Part shown: piece after piece, positions 11,026 through 31,399 of the stretch
Numbering within the stretch: the first letter of the stretch is position 1
How the letters are laid out: every line of letters starts with the position of its first letter
From: an uncultured Candidatus Saccharibacteria bacterium
GTDB taxonomy: Bacteria; Patescibacteriota; Minisyncoccia; Phycocordibacterales; PALSA-1337
Reading direction: 5' to 3'
Assembly: GCA_964655515.1 (NCBI GenBank)
Contig: CAZZPF010000009.1
Coordinates: 1-35,577, forward strand
Length of the DNA stretch: 35,577 nucleotides
The notes under the pieces: generated by a model
Told to the model about the DNA's origin: nothing
What the model saw: only the letters and a program-made list of their open reading frames with translations
Databases searched by the model: none
Position numbers and translations under genes: made by a program

Positions 11026-14000
11026 TTAAAGTAAATTTAATTTAACAGACAATTCTCTGAGGTTTTTTGCTTCGGAAACTACAGTCTCAAATCTGATGTC
11101 TGAGAGTAAGGCGACTCTGGTAATGTCTTTTTTATTTTTTATAATCAACTCCTTGCCTTTTTCATCGGTATCAACAACAAGCACCGCGTGGTCGTGTATG
11201 GTCAATCCCCTCTCCTTACGCAAATCCTGAATTGCACGCACAAGCTCGCGTACTGTTCCCTCTTCTTTCAATTCAGGCGTTATTGAAACATCCAAAACTA
11301 CTTCTTGGCTAAGAGAAGAATTAAAAATTACTTCTTTTACATTTATTTCGTCTTGTATAAGCTGAACAAGCCCTCTTGGTACAGCACTTTTTACAGTCAA
11401 TTTTGAGAGTGGCTGGCGGACATTTATCTTTGCCTTCATACGCGCTTCAAGGCCGAGGGAGGCAATGCGACGCGCTTCTTTCATGTCGGTAAGGATAGTA
11501 TGATCCGCCTTCGGATATGCCGGCCATTCTTCCAAATGTACACTTTCCTTGCCACCTTTTAATCGTACATAAATATCTTCGGCTAAAAATGGCATAAATG
11601 GCGCAATAAGTTTTGATAAATTTATAAGTACGGTGCGTGTTGTGGCAAGGGCCGCTATTTTGTCTTTTTCATCATCTCCCTTGAAGCGATCTCGTGACCG
11701 GCGAATATACCAAGTAGAAAGGTCATCAATAAAATCAGCAAAAGGACGAATTGCTCTATCAATTTCATATTTCTCAAGATTTAGAGTGACTTCACTTGCA
11801 AGTTCTGCAAAACGATTGACAATCCATATATCAAGGCGGTCTGTGCTTGTTATATCTTTGATATCTACTGTGGCATACATTTCATAAAAAGTGACAACGT
11901 TGTTTAGGCGACCAATGTGTTTTTTCACAACTTCATCTATACCTTTTTCCAAAAAGACAAAGTCTTGTCCACGCACAACAGGTGAAGACATTAGATAATA
12001 ACGCAGAGCGTCTGCGCCATATTTATTTATAATTGGTATAAGGTCAGGAAAGTTATTTTTAGACTTTGACATTTTTTGGCCATCTTCGGCTAAAACTTGA
12101 CCATTTACAACAACTCTCTTAAAAGCAGATTTACCGAAAAGAGCCACACTTAAAACAATCATTGAATAAAACCATCCACGGGTTTGATCCAAACCTTCAG
12201 CAATAAAATCTGCAGGATATCCTTTTGATTTTCTAAAGAAAATATTGCTTGGATCAAATTCTGTTCTATCAAATGGATAATGATATTCTGCAAAGGGCAT
12301 TGATCCAGACTCAAACCAACAATCAAAAACTTCTGGAACACGAATCAGTTTATTTCCCCTGAGAGTAACAAGCTCAAGATCGTCTATAAATGGTTTGTGG
12401 AGATCAAGTTCATATTCAGAGTTATGTGGTAATGGACAGAAGTCCAATTTAGATGGTTTGGCATTTTGATTATAATGATCTCTTGCTCCACGAAGAGCTA
12501 TTGACTGCTTTCTATCCAAACCTTGTACAACGGCAGTTAGTAAAAACAGCGGTGTATCATGAGAAATAATGAGAATATTTTTGTCTTTATATTTTTTTTC
12601 AAGATCATACAGTACATCACCCATACGCTTTTTTATATCAGCATAATTTTCTCCACCTTCGGGGGTTTTTATAAATCTGTCGGCGTGGGCAAAGTTTTTT
12701 ACAAAATGATCAAATGGTTTTCCATTCCACACACCGGCGTTTAGTTCGTGTATTCTGGGTTCAATAATAATTTTTGAGGGATCAAAAGCTAAAATTTTTC
12801 CAATTATATCTGCTGTTTCTCTAGTACGAATAAAAGGAGAAACGAAAACAAGATCAATCTTTTTATCTTTTAACCAAATACCTATTTCCTCGGCTTGCTT
12901 TTTACCTTTTTCTGTTAAGTGGTGGGAATTCTCTGCCACTGAACTTATGACCCTTTTTGTATTATTTTCTGCTTCACCGTGTCTAGTAATATAATAAGTA
13001 TTTTTTGAATGACTATATTTTTTTAATTCTTCTAGTCCAGAAATAACCTTATATTCATCGGTTTTCTCTACTTTCCAGACAGGCAAAGGAGCACCCCAAA
13101 ATCTAGACCGTGATATAGCCCAATCATGCGCATTTGCCAGCCAATTACCGAATCTTCCTTGGCCTATTTCTGGTGGAATCCATTGTATTTTTTTATTTTC
13201 CTTGACCAAGTTATGGCGAAGGGCTGTAACTTTTACAAACCAAGATGAAGAGGCATAATTTAAAAGCGGAGTCTCGCAACGCCAACAATGAGCATACGAA
13301 TGTACGATTTTTTCTTTTTCAAAAAGACTATTGTGATGTGCAAGATATTTTATAATTTCTATATCTGCTTTTTGATGATTGTCTTTTTCTTCATTTGTAT
13401 CTTTTGGCTTAACTGGCTGACCTTGAAAATCTATAACTTCTTTTTTGAAAGTGCCATTTGTGGCTATATGTTGAATAAAAGGTAAAGAATATTTAAGTGA
13501 CAAATCATAATCATCAGAACCAAAAGCAGGAGCAACATGTACTATTCCGGTGCCATCTTCCGTAGTAACAAAATCCGCACCATAAACCTTCCAACCATTT
13601 TGGTGATTTTTTAGGTTTTTATCATTAAAGTAATATGGAAAAACTGCTTCATATGATTTTCCTATGAAATTTTCTCCTTTTATTTCTTCAAGAATCTTGT
13701 ATTCTTTTTTAAGTACTGAAAGTCTATTTTTTGCAATAATAAATTTTTCATTAGCTATTTGAACTTTTGCATATTCAATATTGGCATTGACGGCAAGTGC
13801 AGAATTCCCCGGAAGCGTCCATGGTGTTGTCGTCCAAGCCAGAAAATATGTAGGTGATTCTTCATCAGACTGATCTAGTAATTTAAATTTTACATAAACA
13901 AAAATATCGGTAATATCTTTATATCCTAGATTAACTTCAAAATTTGAAAGTGTGGTCTCACATCTAGGGCAAAGATTCATAGACTTGAAACCTTCATAGA

Positions 14001-14517
14001 TTAAACCTTTTTTATAGAGTTCAGAAAATGCCCACCAGACGGATTCTGTATAACTAGCATCCATGGTACGATAATCATTATTCATATCCACCCATCGTCC
14101 AAGCCGAGGTATAATCCTCCGCCAATCTTCCGCATAACGCATTACACTTTCACGAGCCATGGCATTGAATTTTTCAATTCCATATTCAAGAATATCTTTC
14201 TTTGAACCAAGTTCCAGTTCTTTTTCAACAATATTTTCTACAGGCAATCCATGACAATCCCATCCCCAGCGCCGTTTCACATAATATCCTCGCATAGTTT
14301 TATAGCGAGGGATTATATCTTTTATTGTTCCAGGCACAATGTGTCCATAGTGCGGCTCGCCTGTTGCAAAGGGTGGCCCATCATAAAAAACAAACTGCCC
14401 TTTTGGTGATGGCTTTTCTAGAGATTTTTTAAAAATTTCATTCTTTTCCCAAAAAGCTAGTATCTTTTCTTCATTTTCTGCCATTTTGCTCTTTTCGGGC
14501 TTTTGTTCATTCTGCAT
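11026..14517 (-). CDS. ileS: isoleucine--tRNA ligase with an internal histidine-phosphatase (PGAM-like) domain insertion
   Basis: PPFATGEPHYGH is the HIGH motif, WTTTPWTLPGN marks the editing domain, WAISRSRFWGAPLPVW is conserved, and KMSKSKNN is the KMSKS motif. A module of about 200 aa carrying RHGE...SPFIRTRETA...ISHD is inserted (see findings). The start may instead be the ATG at 14484 (MAENEEKILAFW). Confidence 0.9.
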   Translation of the reverse strand: MQNEQKPEKSKMAENEEKILAFWEKNEIFKKSLEKPSPKGQFVFYDGPPFATGEPHYGHIVPGTIKDIIPRYKTMRGYYVKRRWGWDCHGLPVENIVEKELELGSKKDILEYGIEKFNAMARESVMRYAEDWRRIIPRLGRWVDMNNDYRTMDASYTESVWWAFSELYKKGLIYEGFKSMNLCPRCETTLSNFEVNLGYKDITDIFVYVKFKLLDQSDEESPTYFLAWTTTPWTLPGNSALAVNANIEYAKVQIANEKFIIAKNRLSVLKKEYKILEEIKGENFIGKSYEAVFPYYFNDKNLKNHQNGWKVYGADFVTTEDGTGIVHVAPAFGSDDYDLSLKYSLPFIQHIATNGTFKKEVIDFQGQPVKPKDTNEEKDNHQKADIEIIKYLAHHNSLFEKEKIVHSYAHCWRCETPLLNYASSSWFVKVTALRHNLVKENKKIQWIPPEIGQGRFGNWLANAHDWAISRSRFWGAPLPVWKVEKTDEYKVISGLEELKKYSHSKNTYYITRHGEAENNTKRVISSVAENSHHLTEKGKKQAEEIGIWLKDKKIDLVFVSPFIRTRETADIIGKILAFDPSKIIIEPRIHELNAGVWNGKPFDHFVKNFAHADRFIKTPEGGENYADIKKRMGDVLYDLEKKYKDKNILIISHDTPLFLLTAVVQGLDRKQSIALRGARDHYNQNAKPSKLDFCPLPHNSEYELDLHKPFIDDLELVTLRGNKLIRVPEVFDCWFESGSMPFAEYHYPFDRTEFDPSNIFFRKSKGYPADFIAEGLDQTRGWFYSMIVLSVALFGKSAFKRVVVNGQVLAEDGQKMSKSKNNFPDLIPIINKYGADALRYYLMSSPVVRGQDFVFLEKGIDEVVKKHIGRLNNVVTFYEMYATVDIKDITSTDRLDIWIVNRFAELASEVTLNLEKYEIDRAIRPFADFIDDLSTWYIRRSRDRFKGDDEKDKIAALATTRTVLINLSKLIAPFMPFLAEDIYVRLKGGKESVHLEEWPAYPKADHTILTDMKEARRIASLGLEARMKAKINVRQPLSKLTVKSAVPRGLVQLIQDEINVKEVIFNSSLSQEVVLDVSITPELKEEGTVRELVRAIQDLRKERGLTIHDHAVLVVDTDEKGKELIIKNKKDITRVALLSDIRFETVVSEAKNLRELSVKLNLL

Positions 14518-26283: not shown

Positions 26284-27261
26284 TTATTTTTCTAATTTTA
26301 AATGTTTTTTGAGTTTGTAAGTATTTCCATGTCCAAGTAATCCACGATAAGAATTTACAGTTTCTTTTTTGGGATAACCTCTTAATTTTCTTATTATTTT
26401 TCTTTTTGTAGTTGTACGAATCTGTCTATGATATGGAAAGTGGACCCAGCCCAGAAAATCTACGCCCGAATCGTAGGTCTTTATGTATACTTTGTGCTCA
26501 TGGAGTGTGAGGTGTAATTTCTCATTCAGAAAAACGTGGAGCTTCGGCAGAATGTCTTCTAGATATTTTCTATCGTCAGACAGGATCGCAAAATCATCCG
26601 CATAGCGAAGATAATATTTTACTCGCAGTTCCTGTTTGAGGTACATGTCAAATTCGTGCATGTACACATTCACGAGAAGCTGAGACGTGAGATTGCCAAG
26701 TGGCAGTCCGACACCAGGAGCAGTTGTGTGAAAGCTCGAGACCACTTGATTAATGAGCCAGCGAATATCTGGATCGGCAATATGACGCTCGAGCACTTTC
26801 ATAAGGACCTCATGATCAACGCTTGCAAAGAATTTCCTGATGTCACACTTAAGCACGAAGCATGTGCGTGTGTAATTCTTGGACATCTTGCGGGCAAAAT
26901 CTCTGAAGCGGTCGAGAGCTCGATGTGTTCCCTTATGCTTTCGGCATGAATACGAATCGTGAATAAAGCGGGTGTGGAAATGCCAGTAAAGCTCTTTATA
27001 AATTAAATGATGCAGCACCCTATCACGCACAGTTGCTTTGTGAATGCTGCGAGGCTTTGGATCGGAAATATTAAACGCTGAGTACAGACCGTGAACATAA
27101 GTCTTATTTTTGAGGTCTGTATATAGGCTAGCGATGTTGATTGTGAGCTCGGCTTGAAATTTTATGACATCCTTTTTGTGCTTTTTGCCGCGTAGAAATC
27201 TCTCCCACGTCAGGAGTAAATTTTCGATTGTGATGATAGAATTGTAGGTATGAGTAAACAT
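26284..27261 (-). CDS. DGR-type reverse transcriptase
   Basis: RT motifs 1-7 are present: PRSIHKATVRDRVLHH, SYSCRKHKGTHRAL, VLKCDIRKFFASVDH, GLPLGNLTSQLLVNVYM (the DGR-diagnostic GxxxSQ), YLRYADDFAIL, LHLTLHEHKV and GVDFLGW. I chose the start at the ATG at 27261 (MFTHTYNSI...). The upstream part of the track ORF is antisense to avd. Confidence 0.88.
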   Translation of the reverse strand: MFTHTYNSIITIENLLLTWERFLRGKKHKKDVIKFQAELTINIASLYTDLKNKTYVHGLYSAFNISDPKPRSIHKATVRDRVLHHLIYKELYWHFHTRFIHDSYSCRKHKGTHRALDRFRDFARKMSKNYTRTCFVLKCDIRKFFASVDHEVLMKVLERHIADPDIRWLINQVVSSFHTTAPGVGLPLGNLTSQLLVNVYMHEFDMYLKQELRVKYYLRYADDFAILSDDRKYLEDILPKLHVFLNEKLHLTLHEHKVYIKTYDSGVDFLGWVHFPYHRQIRTTTKRKIIRKLRGYPKKETVNSYRGLLGHGNTYKLKKHLKLEK

Positions 27262-27287
27262 AACGAGCAGAATAAACCAGTAAGTAA

Positions 27288-27296
27288 CCCCCCCCC
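27288..27296. repeat. C9 (G9 on the minus strand) homopolymer tract in the RT/avd divergent intergenic region
   Basis: I read it directly as ...taagtaaCCCCCCCCCacga... It lies 27 nt upstream of the RT ATG and 19 nt upstream of the avd GTG. Confidence 0.9.
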
Positions 27297-27314
27297 ACGA
27301 TTCCACTCGTTCTT

Positions 27315-27656
27315 GTGCGTGCGAAAGAAGCGTACCAATTGTGGCATAGCTCAATCGTAAATTTAAAGCGTGTCGACCGCTACACGATCGGTGCAAAAGT
27401 TGACGATATTTTCCTCTCACTCCTCGAGCTCATATTCAGAGCATGCTTTGCTTATGACAAATTCGAGAAGCTGTCTCTGGTATCTCAGGCTATTGCAAAA
27501 TCCGACCTGCTCAAATTCTTTCTGCAATTGAGCTGGGAACATAAAGTCATTGACCATAAAAGTTACGGTGCACTGATTCTTCTTTTAGATGAAGTCGGTC
27601 GCATGCTTGGAGGTTGGAAGAAAAACCTTGGAGACAAAACTCCCACTAACAAATAG
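27315..27656 (+). CDS. avd: Avd-like four-helix-bundle protein (DGR accessory variability determinant family)
   Basis: The 113-aa protein has a GTG start. RYTIGAKVDDIFLSLLELIFRACFA...LLKFFLQLSWEHKVIDHKSYGALILLLDEVGRMLGGWKK matches the four-helix-bundle (23S rRNA IVS/Avd) family pattern. It lies between the TR and the RT but on the opposite strand. Confidence 0.7.
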   Translation: MRAKEAYQLWHSSIVNLKRVDRYTIGAKVDDIFLSLLELIFRACFAYDKFEKLSLVSQAIAKSDLLKFFLQLSWEHKVIDHKSYGALILLLDEVGRMLGGWKKNLGDKTPTNK

Positions 27657-27673
27657 TGGGAGAAATCATTTGA

Positions 27674-27795
27674 GTTGCAGAAGCAGAGGAAGGCATTGTC
27701 GTCGTTCCAGACATTCTCGAAGTTGCCAAGGTTGAACTTGAAGTGACCGTCCGAGTTGCAGTTCACATTCGGCACCCTGTGGTTGCCGTCGGCAT
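27674..27795 (-). repeat. DGR template repeat (TR)
   Basis: The 122 nt align without gaps to 28142-28263 at an offset of 468. There are 12 mismatches, and every one is a plus-strand T in the TR, which is an A on the sense strand. In the VR frame the TR is rich in AAC (Asn) codons. Confidence 0.9.
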
Positions 27796-28030
27796 ACCTC
27801 ATCAGCAATGTACGACGCGCCGTCTATTTCACCAAGAAGAGCACCGGCTCCCCTTTGAATTTTATTTCGAGTCTTATACTCGCTGGCACATCGCACCGAC
27901 TTATTTGATTTTTTCATGAAAGGCAGCACTCGTCCGCAAGGCTTACCCGACAGACCGCTCGCTGATTCCTTAAACGAGAATTCGATGACATGAAACCGTG
28001 GCCACATGCGCTATCTAGGTTCCGAACAAT

Positions 28031-28038
28031 ATTATACA
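28031..28038 (-). promoter_or_regulatory. candidate -10 element (TG-TATAAT) for a separate TR-containing transcript
   Basis: The minus strand reads tttTGTATAATatt directly after the target-gene hairpin. The -35 region (tcaatt) is weak. Confidence 0.3.
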
Positions 28039-28049
28039 AAATTTAGATA

Positions 28050-28084
28050 GAAAAATTGAGCCCTCGCAGTGAAGCAAGGGCTCA
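28050..28084 (-). terminator. hairpin downstream of the VR and target stop (terminator and/or DGR-associated stem-loop)
   Basis: tgagccct (28057-28064) pairs with agggctca (28077-28084) around a 12-nt loop. On the minus strand it is followed by atttttc. It lies about 50 nt after the stop codon. Confidence 0.5.
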
Positions 28085-28132
28085 AAGGATCTAAGATCCG
28101 AAGAACTAACTGAGTGTCCAAGTTTCCAAGGA

Positions 28133-28822
28133 CTACTCGACGTCGCAGAAGCAGAGGAAGGCATCGTCGTCGATCCAGACAATCCCGAAGCGGCCAAGGT
28201 TGAACTCGAAGCGACCGTCCGAGTGGCAGTCCACAGTCGGCACCCTGTGGTTGCCGTCGGCATCTGCCCAGAGACGATCCTTTTCATCGAAGGAAGCATA
28301 CCACTTGCCTTTCGGCAGTTGGTCGCGCTTCTGATCGAAGACGAGGGACGCGCCTTGTGCACCGGTGTGAATGGCCTTTTGAGTTGCCAAGAACGCCATA
28401 CGCTCTTCCGAGGTAGTGGTCCCACCGACGACTTGCTTGAACGCGCGAACGCGAAGCTTGTCGCCAGGCTTCAGGACCCGAGTCGGATTCGGGAAGTTCT
28501 TGTCGGTGATCTCGTCGTTGTAGTAATAGAACTTTTTACGGTTCTGCTTACCGAACGTCGTGAACCGCTTGTCGTGCACGTAGTTATCGGGCACCGTGAT
28601 GATGCCGAGGTCCACGAGCAGAGCGAACTTTTCGGTGGGTTCCGCAGGAGCTGTGGACTCCGGCTTCTTCCAATCGCCGAAACGTGCTTCCCGATCATCC
28701 GGAGAGAGGTTGTTGAACCGCTCCAACTGGCCGAGGGTGATCTGACCGCTTCGCACCTTTTGAAGGGTGTCGATTTGCAAACCAGCTAATTTGGCCGCAT
28801 CTGCGTCGATGATAGTGTTCAT
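28133..28822 (-). CDS. DGR target (variable) protein, 229 aa, no recognisable signal peptide
   Basis: A good RBS (AAGGAAAGGA) lies 6 nt upstream of the ATG. The gene is high in GC. The C-terminal 41 codons are the VR, and the protein ends ...AFLCFCDVE. Confidence 0.85.
   Translation of the reverse strand: MNTIIDADAAKLAGLQIDTLQKVRSGQITLGQLERFNNLSPDDREARFGDWKKPESTAPAEPTEKFALLVDLGIITVPDNYVHDKRFTTFGKQNRKKFYYYNDEITDKNFPNPTRVLKPGDKLRVRAFKQVVGGTTTSEERMAFLATQKAIHTGAQGASLVFDQKRDQLPKGKWYASFDEKDRLWADADGNHRVPTVDCHSDGRFEFNLGRFGIVWIDDDAFLCFCDVE
28142..28263 (-). repeat. DGR variable repeat (VR)
   Basis: This is the counterpart of the TR. It ends 2 codons before the stop codon. Eleven amino-acid positions differ from the TR-encoded sequence. 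Confidence 0.9.
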
Positions 28823-28894: not shown

Positions 28895-28923
28895 ATTATA
28901 CACCCTACATCATATTTTGTCAA
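28895..28923 (-). promoter_or_regulatory. consensus sigma70-type promoter of the DGR target gene
   Basis: The minus strand reads TTGACA (28923-28918), a 17-nt spacer, then TATAAT (28900-28895). It lies about 70 nt upstream of the target ATG. Confidence 0.6.
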
Positions 28924-28962: not shown

Positions 28963-28985
28963 TATTTTGAAGAAAAATATCGCAG

Positions 28986-29057
28986 GGTGACTACTGGGAG
29001 TTGAACCCAGACTAAAAGCTCCACAAGCTTCTGTGCTACCGCTACACCATAGCCACC
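28986..29057 (-). tRNA. tRNA-His (anticodon GTG) with encoded G-1
   Basis: The sequence is G-GTGGCTA...TAGTCAC-C. The anticodon stem GAAGC/GCTTT encloses the loop TTGTGGA. The T-loop is GGTTCAACTCC. No CCA is encoded. Confidence 0.9.
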
Positions 29058-29105
29058 ATATTTCACCTATTTGTATTAAGATGATAGCATCTTTATATCA
29101 GATTT

Positions 29106-29624
29106 ATGACTTCCTTGCCACACCCCTTTTTTAATCGTCCAGTCTTAAGAGTGGCTCGTGACCTCACTGGTTGTCATCTTGTTCGTCAAAAAGACCAAAA
29201 GATTGAGCGATACATGATAACTGAAACCGAAGCTTATGACGGTCATCATGACCTAGCATCTCATGCTTCAAAAGGCAGAACAAAACGAAATGAAATAATG
29301 TTCGGCTCTTCTGGATATTTTTATGTTTACCTTATCTATGGAATGTATTGGATGTTAAATATTGTGACAGGACCAAAGGGCTACCCTGCCGCCGTGCTTA
29401 TTCGTGGCATTGAAGGATATGATGGACCAGGAAAATTGACAAGAAAATTAGGTATAAAAGGAAAACTCAATGGAAAAAAGGTTGAACAAAAATCGGGGTT
29501 GTGGATTGAACCAAGAGAAAAGGATTTTAAAACTAAAAAAATCACTCGCGCAACACGAATCGGCATTGATTATGCCGGACCAATTTGGTCAAAGAAAAAA
29601 TACAGGTTTGTGTTTAAGGAATAG
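29106..29624 (+). CDS. mpg: DNA-3-methyladenine glycosylase (Mpg/AAG family)
   Basis: It reads FFNRPVLRVARDLTGCHLV, ITETEAYDGHHDLASHA, GRTKRNEIMFGSSGYFYVYLIYGMYWMLNIV. Confidence 0.85.
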   Translation: MTSLPHPFFNRPVLRVARDLTGCHLVRQKDQKIERYMITETEAYDGHHDLASHASKGRTKRNEIMFGSSGYFYVYLIYGMYWMLNIVTGPKGYPAAVLIRGIEGYDGPGKLTRKLGIKGKLNGKKVEQKSGLWIEPREKDFKTKKITRATRIGIDYAGPIWSKKKYRFVFKE

Positions 29625-29887
29625 TAAGCAAAAGAACAACACATAATACTGTAATACAAGCAAATATTCCTATAGTTTTTACCAAGAGTGAAACTGCAGC
29701 ATTTTTATCACCATCTAAATATATCCTTATTGGCTGATAGAAAAATATCAATCTGGCCATGACCACCCATCCTTTGCACATAAAAAATGAAAGTGGCCAT
29801 TATGGACACATAGGCAATTGCAAGTAAGGCATTTAAAAAGGGGTTTTTGGTCATGAAGATATTATAACTTATTTTATTATAATTTAG

Positions 29888-29969
29888 TGCTCGGGAGAGG
29901 ACTTGAACCTCCACGCCTTACGGCACACCCACCTCAAGGGTGCATGTATACCAATTTCATCACCCGAGC
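29888..29969 (-). tRNA. tRNA-Leu (anticodon GAG), long variable arm
   Basis: The acceptor is GCTCGGG/CCCGAGC-A. The anticodon stem CACCC/GGGTG encloses the loop TTGAGGT. The T-arm is GGAGGTTCAAGTCCTCT. It overlaps the 5' part of track ORF 29708..29914. Confidence 0.9.
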
Positions 29970-30407
29970 TTATACTTTAACTTCTTCCCTTTTCTCCTCT
30001 ACAGCATTTTCTTTTGAAACAACTTTAGTATCTGTGTTCTGATCTTTATCAATAGCGAGCATGCGACGCATTTGCTTGCGAATTTCCTTTGCGGCTTTTT
30101 CACGAACAAAGTAGAGCTTTGCTCGACGAACCTTTGAGCGACGAAGGAGTTCAATCTTATCAATCATAGGAGAATAGAGAGGAAAAATTTTCTCAACACC
30201 CACACTATCCATGACAGTTCTCACTGTAAAAGTAGCTCCGGCTTCACGACCATGTTTGTGTGCAAGTACAAGCCCTTCAAATGCCTGAAGGCGTATTTTC
30301 CCTTTTTCCTGAATTTTTTGCCAAACCTTTACAGTATCACCGGGACGCACATCTAATCTCTTTCTTTCTTCAACTTTTACTGGGGAAATAATGTTATTTA
30401 TAGTCAT
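29970..30407 (-). CDS. rplS: 50S ribosomal protein L19
   Basis: It reads RPGDTVKVWQKIQEKGKIRLQAFEGLVLA...FTVR...GVEKIFPLYSP.IDKIEL. It has a basic and acidic C-terminal extension. Confidence 0.9.
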   Translation of the reverse strand: MTINNIISPVKVEERKRLDVRPGDTVKVWQKIQEKGKIRLQAFEGLVLAHKHGREAGATFTVRTVMDSVGVEKIFPLYSPMIDKIELLRRSKVRRAKLYFVREKAAKEIRKQMRRMLAIDKDQNTDTKVVSKENAVEEKREEVKV

Positions 30408-30422
30408 AATATAGAAACAAAT

Positions 30423-31169
30423 CTAACATACGCCTTTATTTTTGGCAACTTTTGTGATTCCAAGTTCGTCAATAGCATTTTTAAAATCTTTTGGGATAGG
30501 AGATCTTACAGTTATCTTTTTATTAACACAATTTGTAAATACAATAGAAGAAGCATGAAGAGCAGTGCGACTGAAACCTAGAGCGTCTGGCTTCTCGGTG
30601 GCATAGAGTCGATCGCAGACAATGGGGTGGTTTATGGCCTTAAAATGGACTCGTATCTGGTGTGTACGGCCAGTCTTGGGTTCTGCTTCAATGAACGAAT
30701 ATCCCCTTTTATATGCCAAAAGCGTATACCATGTCTCCGCCTCACGAAGATCTCCTCTGGCTCCACGCGTAGCTGACCAGCGTCTGAAATCTCTCGGGCT
30801 TCTTCCAATCGGTCTATTTATAATTCCAAATTGATCTTTTATCTCGCCATAGACAAAAGTGTAATATTTTTTTGAAATAGTTTGGTTTTGGAATTGTTTT
30901 TTGAGACAATCATATCCCTTTTTAGTTTTTGCAATAAGAAGCACACCCGATGTGTCACGATCAAGACGATGAACAATACCGGGTCTTTCTATTATTCCAT
31001 AATCTTTGGTTTCAATCGGCTCACCTACTTTTTTTGCTTTGGGATATTTTTTTAGTATCCAATCAGTTAAAAATGGCCCAGTTGATTTGCCGTCTGGATG
31101 TACTACAATTCCAGCCGGTTTATCAATAGCCACGATGTTTGCATCTTCGTATAAAATAGGAATTTTCAT
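30423..31169 (-). CDS. RluA family pseudouridine synthase
   Basis: The catalytic motif is GIVHRLDRDTSGVLLIAKT. KTGRTHQIRVH is also present. There is no N-terminal S4 domain. Confidence 0.88.
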   Translation of the reverse strand: MKIPILYEDANIVAIDKPAGIVVHPDGKSTGPFLTDWILKKYPKAKKVGEPIETKDYGIIERPGIVHRLDRDTSGVLLIAKTKKGYDCLKKQFQNQTISKKYYTFVYGEIKDQFGIINRPIGRSPRDFRRWSATRGARGDLREAETWYTLLAYKRGYSFIEAEPKTGRTHQIRVHFKAINHPIVCDRLYATEKPDALGFSRTALHASSIVFTNCVNKKITVRSPIPKDFKNAIDELGITKVAKNKGVC

Positions 31170-31226
31170 GCTTTTATCTTGATAATTAAGAGAATATACG
31201 ATAATCTAACATAAGTCTATTTGTTT

Positions 31227-31302
31227 GCGCGATTAGCTCAGTTGGTAGAGCAGCGCTTTTACACAGCGAAGGTCGCAGGTTCGAATCCTGCATCGCGCAC
31301 CA
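31227..31302 (+). tRNA. tRNA-Val (anticodon TAC), CCA encoded
   Basis: The acceptor is GCGCGAT...ATCGCGC-A-CCA. The D-arm is GCTCAGTTGGTAGAGC, the anticodon loop TTTACAC, and the T-loop GGTTCGAATCC. Confidence 0.9.
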
Positions 31303-31327
31303 AGAAAATTATTTAAATTAACTATTG

Positions 31328-31399
31328 TGCCCTCGCGTGGAATCGAACCACGAATTACGGCTTAGAAGTCCGCAGTTATATCCATTTAACTACGAGGGC
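31328..31399 (-). tRNA. tRNA-Arg (anticodon TCT)
   Basis: The acceptor is GCCCTCG...CGAGGGC-A. The anticodon loop is CTTCTAA, with an A31/G39 mismatch at the stem end. The T-loop is GGTTCGATTCC. Confidence 0.85.

Follow-up and report, generated by a model that had tools for sequence, protein, structure and literature searches.

The 35.6-kb window (the whole 35,577-nt stretch of DNA that was analyzed) carries a 122-nt direct repeat that is very probably the template (TR) and variable region (VR) of a chromosomal diversity-generating retroelement (DGR) of the Patescibacteria (CPR) type, arranged in the order target/VR-TR-(avd, inverted)-RT. All DGR parts are present and intact in the window, and the element is an ordinary further case of the known Patescibacteria DGR system, with nothing about it that is new in kind; some of the RNA and repeat features near it have been little described. 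The first-pass annotation had read mutagenic retrohoming from the repeat pair, and that reading is supported by what adjoins the pair, namely, a DGR-type reverse transcriptase (RT), an avd gene, and a C-terminal VR. The VR lies within the 3' end of a 229-aa open reading frame, and 412 nt separate the end of the TR from the start of the RT. The features of the cassette are as follows.

26284..27261, minus strand: DGR reverse transcriptase, 325 aa with Met54 of the 378-aa open reading frame 26284-27420 taken as its start (Pfam, PDB, and PHROG matches)
27288..27296, unstranded: C9/G9 homopolymer within the 53 nt that separate the start codons of the divergent avd and RT genes
27315..27656, plus strand, opposite to TR and RT: avd accessory gene, 113 aa (Pfam and PHROG matches)
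27640..27662, minus strand: 9-bp stem-loop (CTCCCACTA / TAGTGGGAG), then TTTTG, 11 nt past the TR
27674..27795, minus strand: TR (alignment, repeat search)
27796..28024, minus strand, directly 5' of the TR: structured RNA leader of ~230 nt with seven helices (covariation)
28031..28036, minus strand: TATAAT box (TAnnnT in 13/13 loci)
28056..28099, minus strand: two hairpins past the target stop codon, GGATCTTAGATCC at 28087-28099 and a 12-bp terminator-like stem with a T-run at 28056-28085 (inverted repeat I13)
28133..28822, minus strand: target gene, 229 aa, VR at the C terminus (open reading frame)
28142..28263, minus strand: VR, coding for target residues 188-227 (alignment, repeat search)
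28145..28163, minus strand: adenine-free 19-nt 3' tract of the VR (TGCCTTCCTCTGCTTCTGC), identical to TR 27677-27695
28895..28923, minus strand, upstream of the target gene: putative sigma-70-type promoter, TTGACA-17-TATAAT (12/12, consensus match only)

Adenine-restricted differences between template and variable region

A hand alignment had placed TR 27674-27795 against VR 28142-28263. The recomputed alignment returned the same 122 nt, ungapped and at a constant offset of 468, and a repeat search of the window recovered the pair independently (family D1). The 12 mismatches fall at the TR coordinates reported previously (27676, 27697, 27705, 27714, 27717, 27723, 27724, 27739, 27744, 27757, 27763, and 27768), and in each case the plus strand has T, so that the sense TR, on the minus strand, has A. 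The sense TR contains 31 adenines; from TR to VR, A became G seven times, C three times, and T twice, and none of the 91 non-A template positions has changed. The probability that 12 of 12 mismatches would fall on A by chance is C(31,12)/C(122,12) = 1.1e-8. The abrupt end of homology that had been described on both sides was borne out by chance-level identity in the 40-nt flanks, and a scan of the whole 35.6-kb window found no extra VR-like copy. The TR-frame and VR peptides (frame 2) are exactly those given in the first-pass annotation and differ at 11 residues. The description of the diversified codons as mostly AAC was loosely correct; they comprise five AAC and three AAT (eight Asn codons), together with CAC, AAG, and GAG. 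Adenines occupy codon position 1 in 12 cases, position 2 in 19 cases, and position 3 in none, and 11 TR codons are AAY. Because mutation of the AAG codon can give TAG, the template is not wholly stop-proof.

Mutagenesis had been proposed for all 12 mismatches and is the best explanation for 11 of them. The exception is 27676, in the last codon (AAC in the TR, GAC in the VR), which most likely represents a TR/VR difference fixed at the boundary, or an Asp under selection, rather than adenine mutagenesis, because the VR copies at the target C terminus read GAC in this codon throughout the family (57/57) whatever the TR base (the TRs there read AAC, GAC, TAC, or CAC). This fixed difference, G in the VR and A in the TR, lies past the adenine-free 19-nt tract, the CTTCTGC core of which is kept in nearly all loci compared. 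The tract itself appears to be an IMH-like homology anchor. Neither a GC-only IMH nor a hairpin immediately after the VR, in the style of the Bordetella phage, was found at the window element, the nearest hairpins starting ~42 nt past the VR; GC-rich hairpins just downstream of the VR are reported for only 34% of DGRs (Wu et al. 2018, PMC5758913).

Related cassettes and evidence of activity

Adenine bias was compared in 16 TR/VR pairs from 13 related cassettes. The adenine-restricted signature was present in all pairs compared, with the exception of a decayed L032 paralog, and mismatches on template A made up 19/19 in L001, 17/17 each in L007, L017, and L022, and 16/16 and 11/11 in the two pairs of L021. 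A sister element, the TR of which differs from the window TR at just 2 nt, was found on contigs L070 and L073; over 4,559 nt these show 11 differences, each of them within the VR at a position where the TR has adenine. The L070/L073 pair shows that the DGR family of the window element is diversifying in nature. Activity of the window element in its own strain is something that we infer from its sequence. No same-strain VR variants of it were found, the nearest cassettes being 88-92% identical. A possible remote target in L025/L040 was rejected: the two come from the same MAG, have identical targets and VRs, and are probably a repeated or alternative assembly.

A different reading of the same cassette is that diversification took place in the past and that the element, having been switched off or having acquired a subtle defect, is now inactive in this strain, the 12 differences being the frozen product of its last homing event. 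No further sequence of this strain was found for comparison, and the family does include decayed cassettes (L011 and L040 keep only part of the leader, L052 has a leader but no core, and the RT of L025 is truncated) as well as one element, sampled twice as L065 and L066, with identical VRs and no turnover seen. We nevertheless consider inactivity unlikely for the window element, which has kept its RT, Avd, TR, leader helices, and hairpin intact and in which no non-adenine difference (0/91) has accumulated, so that either the last homing event was recent or the TR/VR pair has been maintained; the sister element, moreover, is demonstrably diversifying. An ordinary segmental duplication or gene-conversion tract with normal divergence and no retroelement would account for the existence of a 122-nt direct repeat and for nothing else, and it is effectively refuted by the restriction of 12/12 differences to one template base (p = 1.1e-8), by the repetition of the adenine bias in related cassettes, by the RT and Avd genes that adjoin the repeat, and by contigs L070 and L073, between which the genic copy changes while the non-genic copy is constant.

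Reverse transcriptase, Avd, and genomic context

The DGR assignment extends to the proteins encoded beside the repeat. The RT, homologs of which are also ~325 aa long, matched RVT_1 in Pfam (1.2e-24) and phrog_1423 in PHROG (1.7e-101). Its closest PDB match was Bordetella phage bRT (8ub7_A, E 1.3e-38, full length), with group II intron RTs at 1e-14, and the (I/L/V)GxxxSQ and catalytic YxDD motifs expected of the DGR clade are present as LGNLTSQ and YADD, aligned with IGSLTSQ and YMDD of bRT. A different class of RT (group II intron, retron, or defense RT), with the repeat as an incidental neighbor, might be supposed from weak, subthreshold NCBIfam matches to models of group II intron, Drt3a, and retron RTs and from several homolog records named "group II intron" or "retron-type" RT, but it is exceedingly improbable given that those matches are far under their cutoffs (e.g., 139.6 bits versus 300), that bRT leads the other solved relatives by 23 orders of magnitude, that Rfam scans returned no intron RNA domains or retron msr/msd, and that an avd gene adjoins the RT.

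Avd is typical of DGRs, although not universal among them. The protein encoded in the window matched Pfam PF22296 bAvd (48.5 bits against a cutoff of 40; 1.4e-12) and phrog_3206, "Avd protein of DGR" (4.8e-16); its match to NCBIfam NF033474 DivGenRetAVD (52.5 bits, 4.9e-14) is under that model's cutoff of 80. In related cassettes avd is 70-96% identical and is inverted every time. The same TR-(avd)-RT layout, with avd on the reverse strand, is shared by all 13 complete genome-contig cassettes, the window, and the metagenome cassettes.

Named homologs of the target, RT, and ArgRS are nearly all from Patescibacteria/Paceibacterota; for ArgRS, the relatives that are named belong to this group and give an indication of the host. 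PHROG and viral contig scans revealed no phage genes around the element and no viral-contig relatives. Three viral-contig matches to the leader motif were without leader or protein homology, and a phage link was rejected. A repeat search found no att-like direct repeats flanking the cassette, although tRNA-His adjoins it, and tRNA-targeted integration is not supported, as a neighboring tRNA was seen again only in the syntenic relative L007 and, in a loose sense, in L026. Horizontal transfer, argued from GC content alone, is weakened by L007, which has the same tRNA-His context.

A predicted structured RNA flanking the template

The region directly 5' of the TR is predicted to fold into a leader with the following helices and single-stranded segment, all on the minus strand.

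28015-28000 / 27997-27984: helix P1
27977-27968 / 27923-27914: helix P2
27963-27961 / 27927-27925: helix P2a
27955-27945 / 27942-27932: helix P3
27896-27885 / 27821-27810: helix P4
27882-27878 / 27872-27868: helix P4a
27855-27847 / 27842-27834: helix P5
27913-27897: near-invariant single-stranded segment AAAAATCAAATAAGTCG

Among 24 distinct sequences, 97.1% of cells were paired, compared with 37-48% in slid controls, and compensatory change was seen in 38 of 60 pairs, compared with 10-16 in controls, a value matched by 0/500 shuffles. The TATAAT box upstream is presumed to be the promoter -10 element of the TR-containing RNA. A search of positions 27200-28300 against Rfam, at the gathering threshold and at E <= 10, matched the leader and the post-TR region to no family, RT-motif families included. 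A small-protein gene was also considered for the leader and rejected: conservation is lacking for its 113-aa open reading frame (27666..28007), the leaders vary in length by amounts that are not multiples of 3, and most loci have stops in every frame.

The 9-bp stem-loop past the TR overlaps, on the other strand, the final avd codons and stop codon. A hairpin was found in the same place in 23 of 24 folded loci, with unrelated stems in L049, L045, L047, and L032; in the exception, L022, complementary arms exist and the minimum-free-energy fold is without the hairpin. Stem-loops downstream of the TR, "commonly 9 bp," have been reported for 207 of 278 Avd-DGRs, and that of the window fits this description. 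It may serve for Avd binding, for termination of the TR RNA, or for both. A long structured spacer formed by avd read antisense was rejected, since third codon positions are free to vary there, the last ~10 codons excepted. A possible duplex between the leader and the region after the TR is 91% paired, but double changes occur in just two cells, so there is almost no covariation. Since the structured RNA precedes the TR and what follows the hairpin is ordinary avd coding sequence, the leader may, more speculatively, have the scaffold role, and perhaps the primer role, that belongs to the 3' spacer in the Bordetella phage.

The target protein

The target begins with a helical segment, continues through a Pro/Glu-rich linker, and ends in an alpha/beta domain, and inspection by eye revealed no evident signal peptide or transmembrane segment. 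An exact database look-up of the window protein (P0245 in the sequence collection compared) returned no record. There are 608 homologs at 60-90% identity, of which the named ones are all from Patescibacteria, and the hypervariable columns of the family alignment coincide with the TR AAY codons. No family match was obtained in Pfam (E <= 1, 31 members) or, for the window protein, in PHROGs, and a profile search against PDB sequences gave nothing usable. Both hairpins past the target stop codon recur in related loci with different stem sequences.

A C-type lectin (or Ig-like) fold is expected of DGR variable proteins. The AF2 model of the target (pLDDT 81.8) had no match at E < 0.1 when it was compared by Foldseek with PDB and BFVD. 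The modeled order of secondary structure in residues 122-227 is beta-alpha-alpha-beta-beta-beta-alpha-beta, which by our own reading is compatible with a minimal C-type lectin fold. It is also possible that the domain is a scaffold for massive variation without a recognizable C-type lectin fold. The analysis flags an abundant, unannotated target family with no evident signal peptide.

A simple-repeat tract between avd and RT

The C9/G9 homopolymer is the sole G/C run of at least 7 nt in the 35.6-kb window. The same place is occupied in related cassettes by runs of G7 to G15 and in L021/L060 and L024 by (GT)~11 instead. Over 4,601 nt, L005 and L061 differ in the length of this tract (G11 and G15, respectively) and in nothing else. 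The tract is a candidate for slipped-strand change, with the caveat that length differences between assemblies could be sequencing artifacts or assembly errors, and slippage in it may switch expression of the avd/RT machinery on and off. A tract of this kind could gate the mutator; were phase variation through the poly-G or GT repeat to prove true, the element would be a switchable hypermutator. In Haemophilus influenzae, a (TA)n tract between hifA and hifB reportedly acts by simple-sequence-repeat phase variation in a divergent promoter region. The two cases are alike in having a hypermutable-looking repeat between divergent genes that varies in length among close relatives, the unit here being replaceable, Gn or (GT)n. 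For the tract in the window, the link to DGR control is inferred.

Proposed mechanism

The RNA would begin just downstream of the conserved TATAAT box (~28024) and would consist of the ~230-nt seven-helix leader, the 122-nt TR, and the 9-bp stem-loop with its U-tract. This leader-TR-hairpin RNA would be bound by an RT-Avd complex, and the RT would copy the TR into cDNA with misincorporation opposite adenines. The cDNA would then replace the VR of the target gene, the adenine-free 19-nt tract serving as the 3' anchor and the boundary falling before the last codon. As an outcome, up to ~19 target codons, mostly Asn AAY, could be rewritten, which by codon-table arithmetic would allow roughly 10^17 peptides. 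In the structural model, the varied residues would map to the C-terminal domain, where they occupy two beta-strands and one short helix.

A more speculative proposal joins several of these elements, and we regard it as doubtful when taken as a whole. Relative to the Bordetella phage, the RNA would be "permuted": the scaffold for RT-Avd would come from the leader that precedes the TR and not from a 3' spacer, and the invariant single-stranded AAAUCA segment of the leader (27909-27904) may pair with UGAUUU just after the TR for priming or positioning. In the same proposal, the mutator may be phase-switched by the Gn/(GT)n tract that separates avd from RT, and the target domain may be a scaffold other than a C-type lectin. 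A covarying template-flanking RNA that is absent from Rfam could explain how the ribonucleoprotein assembles in inverted-avd DGRs.

Comparison with known systems

The element shares with the DGR of Bordetella phage BPP-1 (mtd-avd-TR-brt) full-length RT homology, an Avd, adenine-specific TR-to-VR differences, and a VR at the 3' end of the target. The ~9-bp stem-loop past the TR resembles the Avd-binding stem-loop of the bRT-Avd-RNA cryo-EM model (Handa et al., bioRxiv 10.1101/2023.10.23.563531), and, as in BPP-1, sequences upstream and downstream of the TR may be able to pair. In contrast to BPP-1, the window has avd in inverted orientation, after the TR and before the RT. Its conserved structured RNA precedes the TR, whereas in BPP-1 it is a 3' spacer, and what follows the hairpin evolves in the manner of plain coding DNA. 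The window also differs from BPP-1 in having no Rfam RT motif match (RT-10 is the BPP-1 spacer motif), no GC-only IMH, a chromosomal rather than a phage-borne location, and a target without a recognizable C-type lectin fold.

The closer comparison is with the DGRs of the CPR bacteria, which are already known as the richest cellular DGR reservoir and of which the layout in the window is the standard. Architecture B3, "TR-(avd)-RT," is typical of Patescibacteria/CPR DGRs (Wu et al. 2018, PMC5758913), and these DGRs correspond to DGR clade 2 (Roux et al. 2021, PMC8144416). The window element agrees with B3 in its layout, host, and location, and by these three properties it would fall in clade 2. 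The target family, the covarying ~230-nt leader, and the poly-G tract are not described in PMC5758913 or PMC8144416; an earlier description is possible (Paul et al. 2017). Part of the value of the comparative set lies in a clean natural case of adenine-only VR turnover between two otherwise identical contigs. The window element has the inverted-avd core order, the cellular rather than viral location, and the Patescibacteria host of the CPR B3 DGRs, together with the small target, C-terminal VR, and lack of a recognizable transmembrane or Pfam domain seen in CPR DGRs, and it differs from the B3 elements in nothing essential.

A complete retroelement surrounds the repeat pair

A recomputed pairwise alignment of the template repeat (TR, 27674-27795) and the variable repeat (VR, 28142-28263) agreed exactly with the ungapped 122-nt match, at an offset of 468, that the first-pass annotation had proposed by hand. 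All 12 mismatches fall at the coordinates reported there, each a plus-strand T, that is, a sense A of the lower copy, and the base counts hold as well (31 adenines in the sense TR; 7 A>G, 3 A>C, and 2 A>T). A search of the computed alignment for gaps or differences at other template bases returned no gaps and 0 of 91 non-A positions changed; 12 mismatches would all land on A with a chance probability of 1.1e-8. Identity is at chance level on either flank of the repeat, as expected from the abrupt ends described earlier. The pair was the top family in a repeat search of the window, and no third copy was found across it.

Read in the frame continuing the upstream open reading frame (ORF), the TR and VR peptides are those previously quoted, with eleven diversified residues. 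The description of these as mostly AAC codons holds in the form that Asn AAY codons underlie 8 of the 11, the rest being CAC, AAG, and GAG. All 31 TR adenines occupy codon position 1 or 2. The TR codon AAG at 27737-27739 (sense positions 57-59) could yield TAG by adenine mutagenesis, and so the template of the window is not fully protected against stops, unlike its AAY codons.

The annotation had read this pattern as mutagenic retrohoming, and the surrounding sequence bears that reading out, as every component of a diversity-generating retroelement (DGR) is present and intact:

28923-28895, minus: perfect match to the consensus promoter, TTGACA-17-TATAAT
28822-28133, minus: target ORF, 229 aa, with the VR as its last 40 codons but two
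28099-28056, minus: two hairpins, of which the second resembles a terminator and has a T-run
28036-28031, minus: TATAAT box
27796-28024, minus: noncoding stretch (~230 nt) that separates the TATAAT box from the TR and forms a conserved RNA leader with seven helices
27662-27640, minus: 9-bp stem-loop followed by TTTTG
27315-27656, plus: avd, 113-aa ORF, bAvd family
27288-27296: C9/G9 run between the divergent avd and reverse transcriptase (RT) starts; no other G/C homopolymer in the 35.6-kb window reaches 7
27261-26284, minus: RT, separated from avd by a 53-nt gap

Avd matched Pfam bAvd (48.5 bits; cut-off, 40) and the PHROG family "Avd protein of DGR"; its match to NCBIfam DivGenRetAVD was under the cut-off of that model. 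The closest solved structure to the RT is the Bordetella phage enzyme bRT (8ub7_A; E = 1.3e-38; end-to-end alignment). Behind it come 8bgj (3.3e-15), a fragment of an unnamed RNA-directed DNA polymerase, and RTs of group II introns (~1e-14). The RT motif LGNLTSQ aligns with IGSLTSQ of bRT, and YADD is present. A length of ~325 aa among homologs argues for an RT start at Met54 of the long ORF.

The 3' boundary of the repeat

While all 12 adenine mismatches stand as positions, the one at 27676 is probably not a product of mutagenesis. It lies in the last shared codon, AAC in the TR and GAC in the VR, and GAC was found here in 57 of 57 VR copies at the target C terminus among the fetched loci, a count that leaves out four rows labeled VR by the rough rule of the scan (one a TR, three unrelated matches elsewhere). 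The corresponding TR triplet varies across the family (AAC, 26; GAC, 6; TAC, 3; or CAC), and the VR keeps G even where the TR has T or C, bases expected to be copied faithfully. Most likely, therefore, this nucleotide would lie outside the replaced segment, or else Asp227 is under strong selection. Directly 5' of it is a 19-nt adenine-free tract, TGCCTTCCTCTGCTTCTGC, which is the same in TR and VR and largely conserved family-wide. The locus has neither a GC-only IMH nor a hairpin right next to the VR; the 19-nt tract would be a functional analog of the IMH, a homology anchor immune to mutagenic erosion.

Related cassettes and evidence of activity

Database searches with the target returned 608 relatives at 60 to 90% identity, the few with an organism name being Patescibacteria. 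In a 31-sequence target alignment, the C-terminal third was unconserved only in columns for which AAY codons of the TR are the template. Among species-representative genomes, a scan picked out 40 loci, mostly in Patescibacteria metagenome-assembled genomes (MAGs), and a metagenome scan using the leader motif added 18 (loci from either source carry L numbers). The cassette was found with its order unchanged and avd inverted throughout at 13 genome loci, window included, and at most metagenome loci. Template A accounts for nearly all TR/VR differences in each complete cassette (L001, 19/19; L007, L017, and L022, 17/17 each; L025, 15/15; L021, 16/16 and 11/11), with single non-A differences in a few others; apparent non-A differences in L026 arose because the comparison window ran past the repeat. 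Two targets per TR occur in L008, L021/L060, L026, L032, and L053, either one 5' of the TR and one 3' of the RT or as a tandem pair; both VRs differ at adenines only, except in the second, decayed L032 paralog, where all four bases are affected.

About 25 loci have a target only, some followed by a truncated leader, which indicates decay; many may be remnants or be served by a DGR elsewhere. Target plus partial leader is all that is left at L011:5791-5916 and L040:5604-5702. At L052 the leader lies at the contig end with no TR, avd, or RT after it, and the L025 RT is truncated at ~109 aa. The L019 VR differs from the TR of L005, in a different MAG, at 17 A and 0 non-A positions. L072 (1761 onward) has a target protein identical to that of L070, diverges completely 190 nt past the gene, and has a gene with Pfam ASRT in the expected place of avd; either the locus was rearranged or the assembly is chimeric.

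The cassettes closest to that of the window are 88 to 92% identical, too distant to sample its own population. For a sister element (target 90% identical; TR differing at 2 nt), there is direct evidence of activity: contigs L070 and L073 come from different sequencing runs and differ at 11 positions in 4,559 nt, all 11 inside the VR where the invariant TR has A. The target protein clusters P0241/P0243 and P0247/P0248 likewise combine an identical backbone with different VRs. The window has no non-A TR/VR difference, a sign either that homing was recent or that the pair is still maintained, and the element is probably active at present.

A repeat tract between avd and RT

A simple repeat occupies the spot of the C9/G9 run in nearly every related cassette, ranging from G7 to G15 or consisting of (GT)~11 (L021/L060 and L024); L044 has G4 only. 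The sole difference between L005 and L061 over 4,601 nt is G11 versus G15, although such homopolymer lengths may also arise by misassembly. The tract resembles contingency sequences that vary by strand slippage, here in what would be a bidirectional control region, and it is possible that it controls the DGR machinery by phase variation. A full-text literature search for DGRs with phase variation or homopolymeric tracts returned no DGR paper among the top results.

Genomic context and mobility

Relatives of the arginyl-tRNA synthetase of the window do not exceed 72% identity, and its few named matches are Patescibacteria/Paceibacterota; the cassette, in contrast, has relatives at 88 to 92% nucleotide identity in different genomic contexts. 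Cassette GC is 0.44 to 0.49 in most cases (0.37 to 0.54 over all 16 compared). The clearest contrasts with flanking sequence run both ways, the cassette being higher in GC in the window and L017 (0.46 to 0.47 versus 0.35 to 0.39) and lower in L022 and L024 (0.49 to 0.54 versus 0.56 to 0.62), which suggests horizontal spread. Distribution is also partly vertical, given the tRNA-His context common to the window and L007. In both, tRNA genes (His, Leu, Val, Arg) are clustered a short way upstream of the target (28985-31399; L007:298-4899), which places the cassette at the same chromosomal site in otherwise diverged genomes. At the other loci examined the sites are unrelated; L026 has a tRNA-Leu/tRNA-His pair ~3.6 kb upstream. 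No integrase or flanking direct repeats were found around the window cassette. Elsewhere in the window (11026-14517, minus), a 1163-aa isoleucyl-tRNA synthetase carries, between its catalytic and anticodon-binding parts, an apparent inserted histidine-phosphatase/phosphoglycerate-mutase-like domain (residues ~505 to 675; NCBIfam matches).

The target protein

No relatives of the target were found in Pfam, PHROG, or PDB sequences. With 31 sequences as input, AlphaFold2 gave a model with a mean pLDDT of 81.8, whose best Foldseek match against PDB and BFVD had an E value of 0.12. The varied residues alternate on two modeled beta-strands (196/198/200 and 204/206) and continue in a short helix (211-217), and on our reading of this secondary structure they would share one face. 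CPR clade-2 targets are typically without recognizable domains, and novel C-type lectin variants are expected among them (Roux et al. 2021, PMC8144416); this target may be one of these variants or may have a different fold.

RNA structure around the template

Across 24 distinct leader sequences, 97.1% of cells form standard pairs, versus 37 to 48% with slid partners, and compensatory double changes affect 38 of 60 pairs versus 10 to 16 in slid controls; none of 500 shuffles matched the observed values. Loop insertions of 12 to 25 nt occur in helices P1, P3, and P4a. Differences in leader length are not multiples of three, and most loci have stops in all frames, so the 113-aa ORF at 27666..28007 and gene calls in the leader (e.g., 81 to 87 aa in L001, L069, and L070) are spurious. 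An Rfam scan of the leader region, at gathering thresholds and at E <= 10, gave no match, including to the RT-associated motifs of Weinberg et al., among which RT-10 is the Bordetella spacer.

A hairpin was predicted 11 to 16 nt downstream of the TR in 23 of 24 folded loci, with stems of 7 to 13 bp and a U-run after each; stem sequences are quite different in L049, L045, L047, and L032, and in L022 the hairpin is absent from the minimum-free-energy fold, its complementary arms being present. Handa et al. (bioRxiv 10.1101/2023.10.23.563531) predicted an Avd-binding stem-loop, commonly of 9 bp, just 3' of the TR for 207 of the 278 DGRs with an Avd, CPR ones included, and a duplex joining sequences 5' and 3' of the TR; their analysis reached only 40 nt upstream, so that the leader would have fallen outside it. 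A candidate for such a duplex would pair AAAUCA (27909-27904), which is invariant and single-stranded, with UGAUUU (27668-27663); pairing is 91% versus 23 to 50% in slid controls, but double changes occur in just two cells.

Comparison with known DGRs

More than ~30 nt past the hairpin, the sequence shows ordinary avd coding evolution (third-position conservation of 0.55 to 0.75, reaching 0.84 only in codons 101 to 110), so that the conserved RNA structure lies 5' of the template. The Bordetella phage DGR instead has a 3' spacer, and we hypothesize a "permuted scaffold" in which the RNA scaffold role would have moved 5' of the TR. The covarying leader RNA, the variable avd-RT repeat tract, the fixed boundary nucleotide, and a target fold without assignment are the points of interest here, and some of these details may already have been described for CPR DGRs. 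The element itself is a typical Patescibacteria DGR of architecture B3 as defined by Wu et al. 2018 (PMC5758913); it thus belongs to an already known type and has the same TR-(avd)-RT layout as other B3 DGRs of CPR/Patescibacteria.
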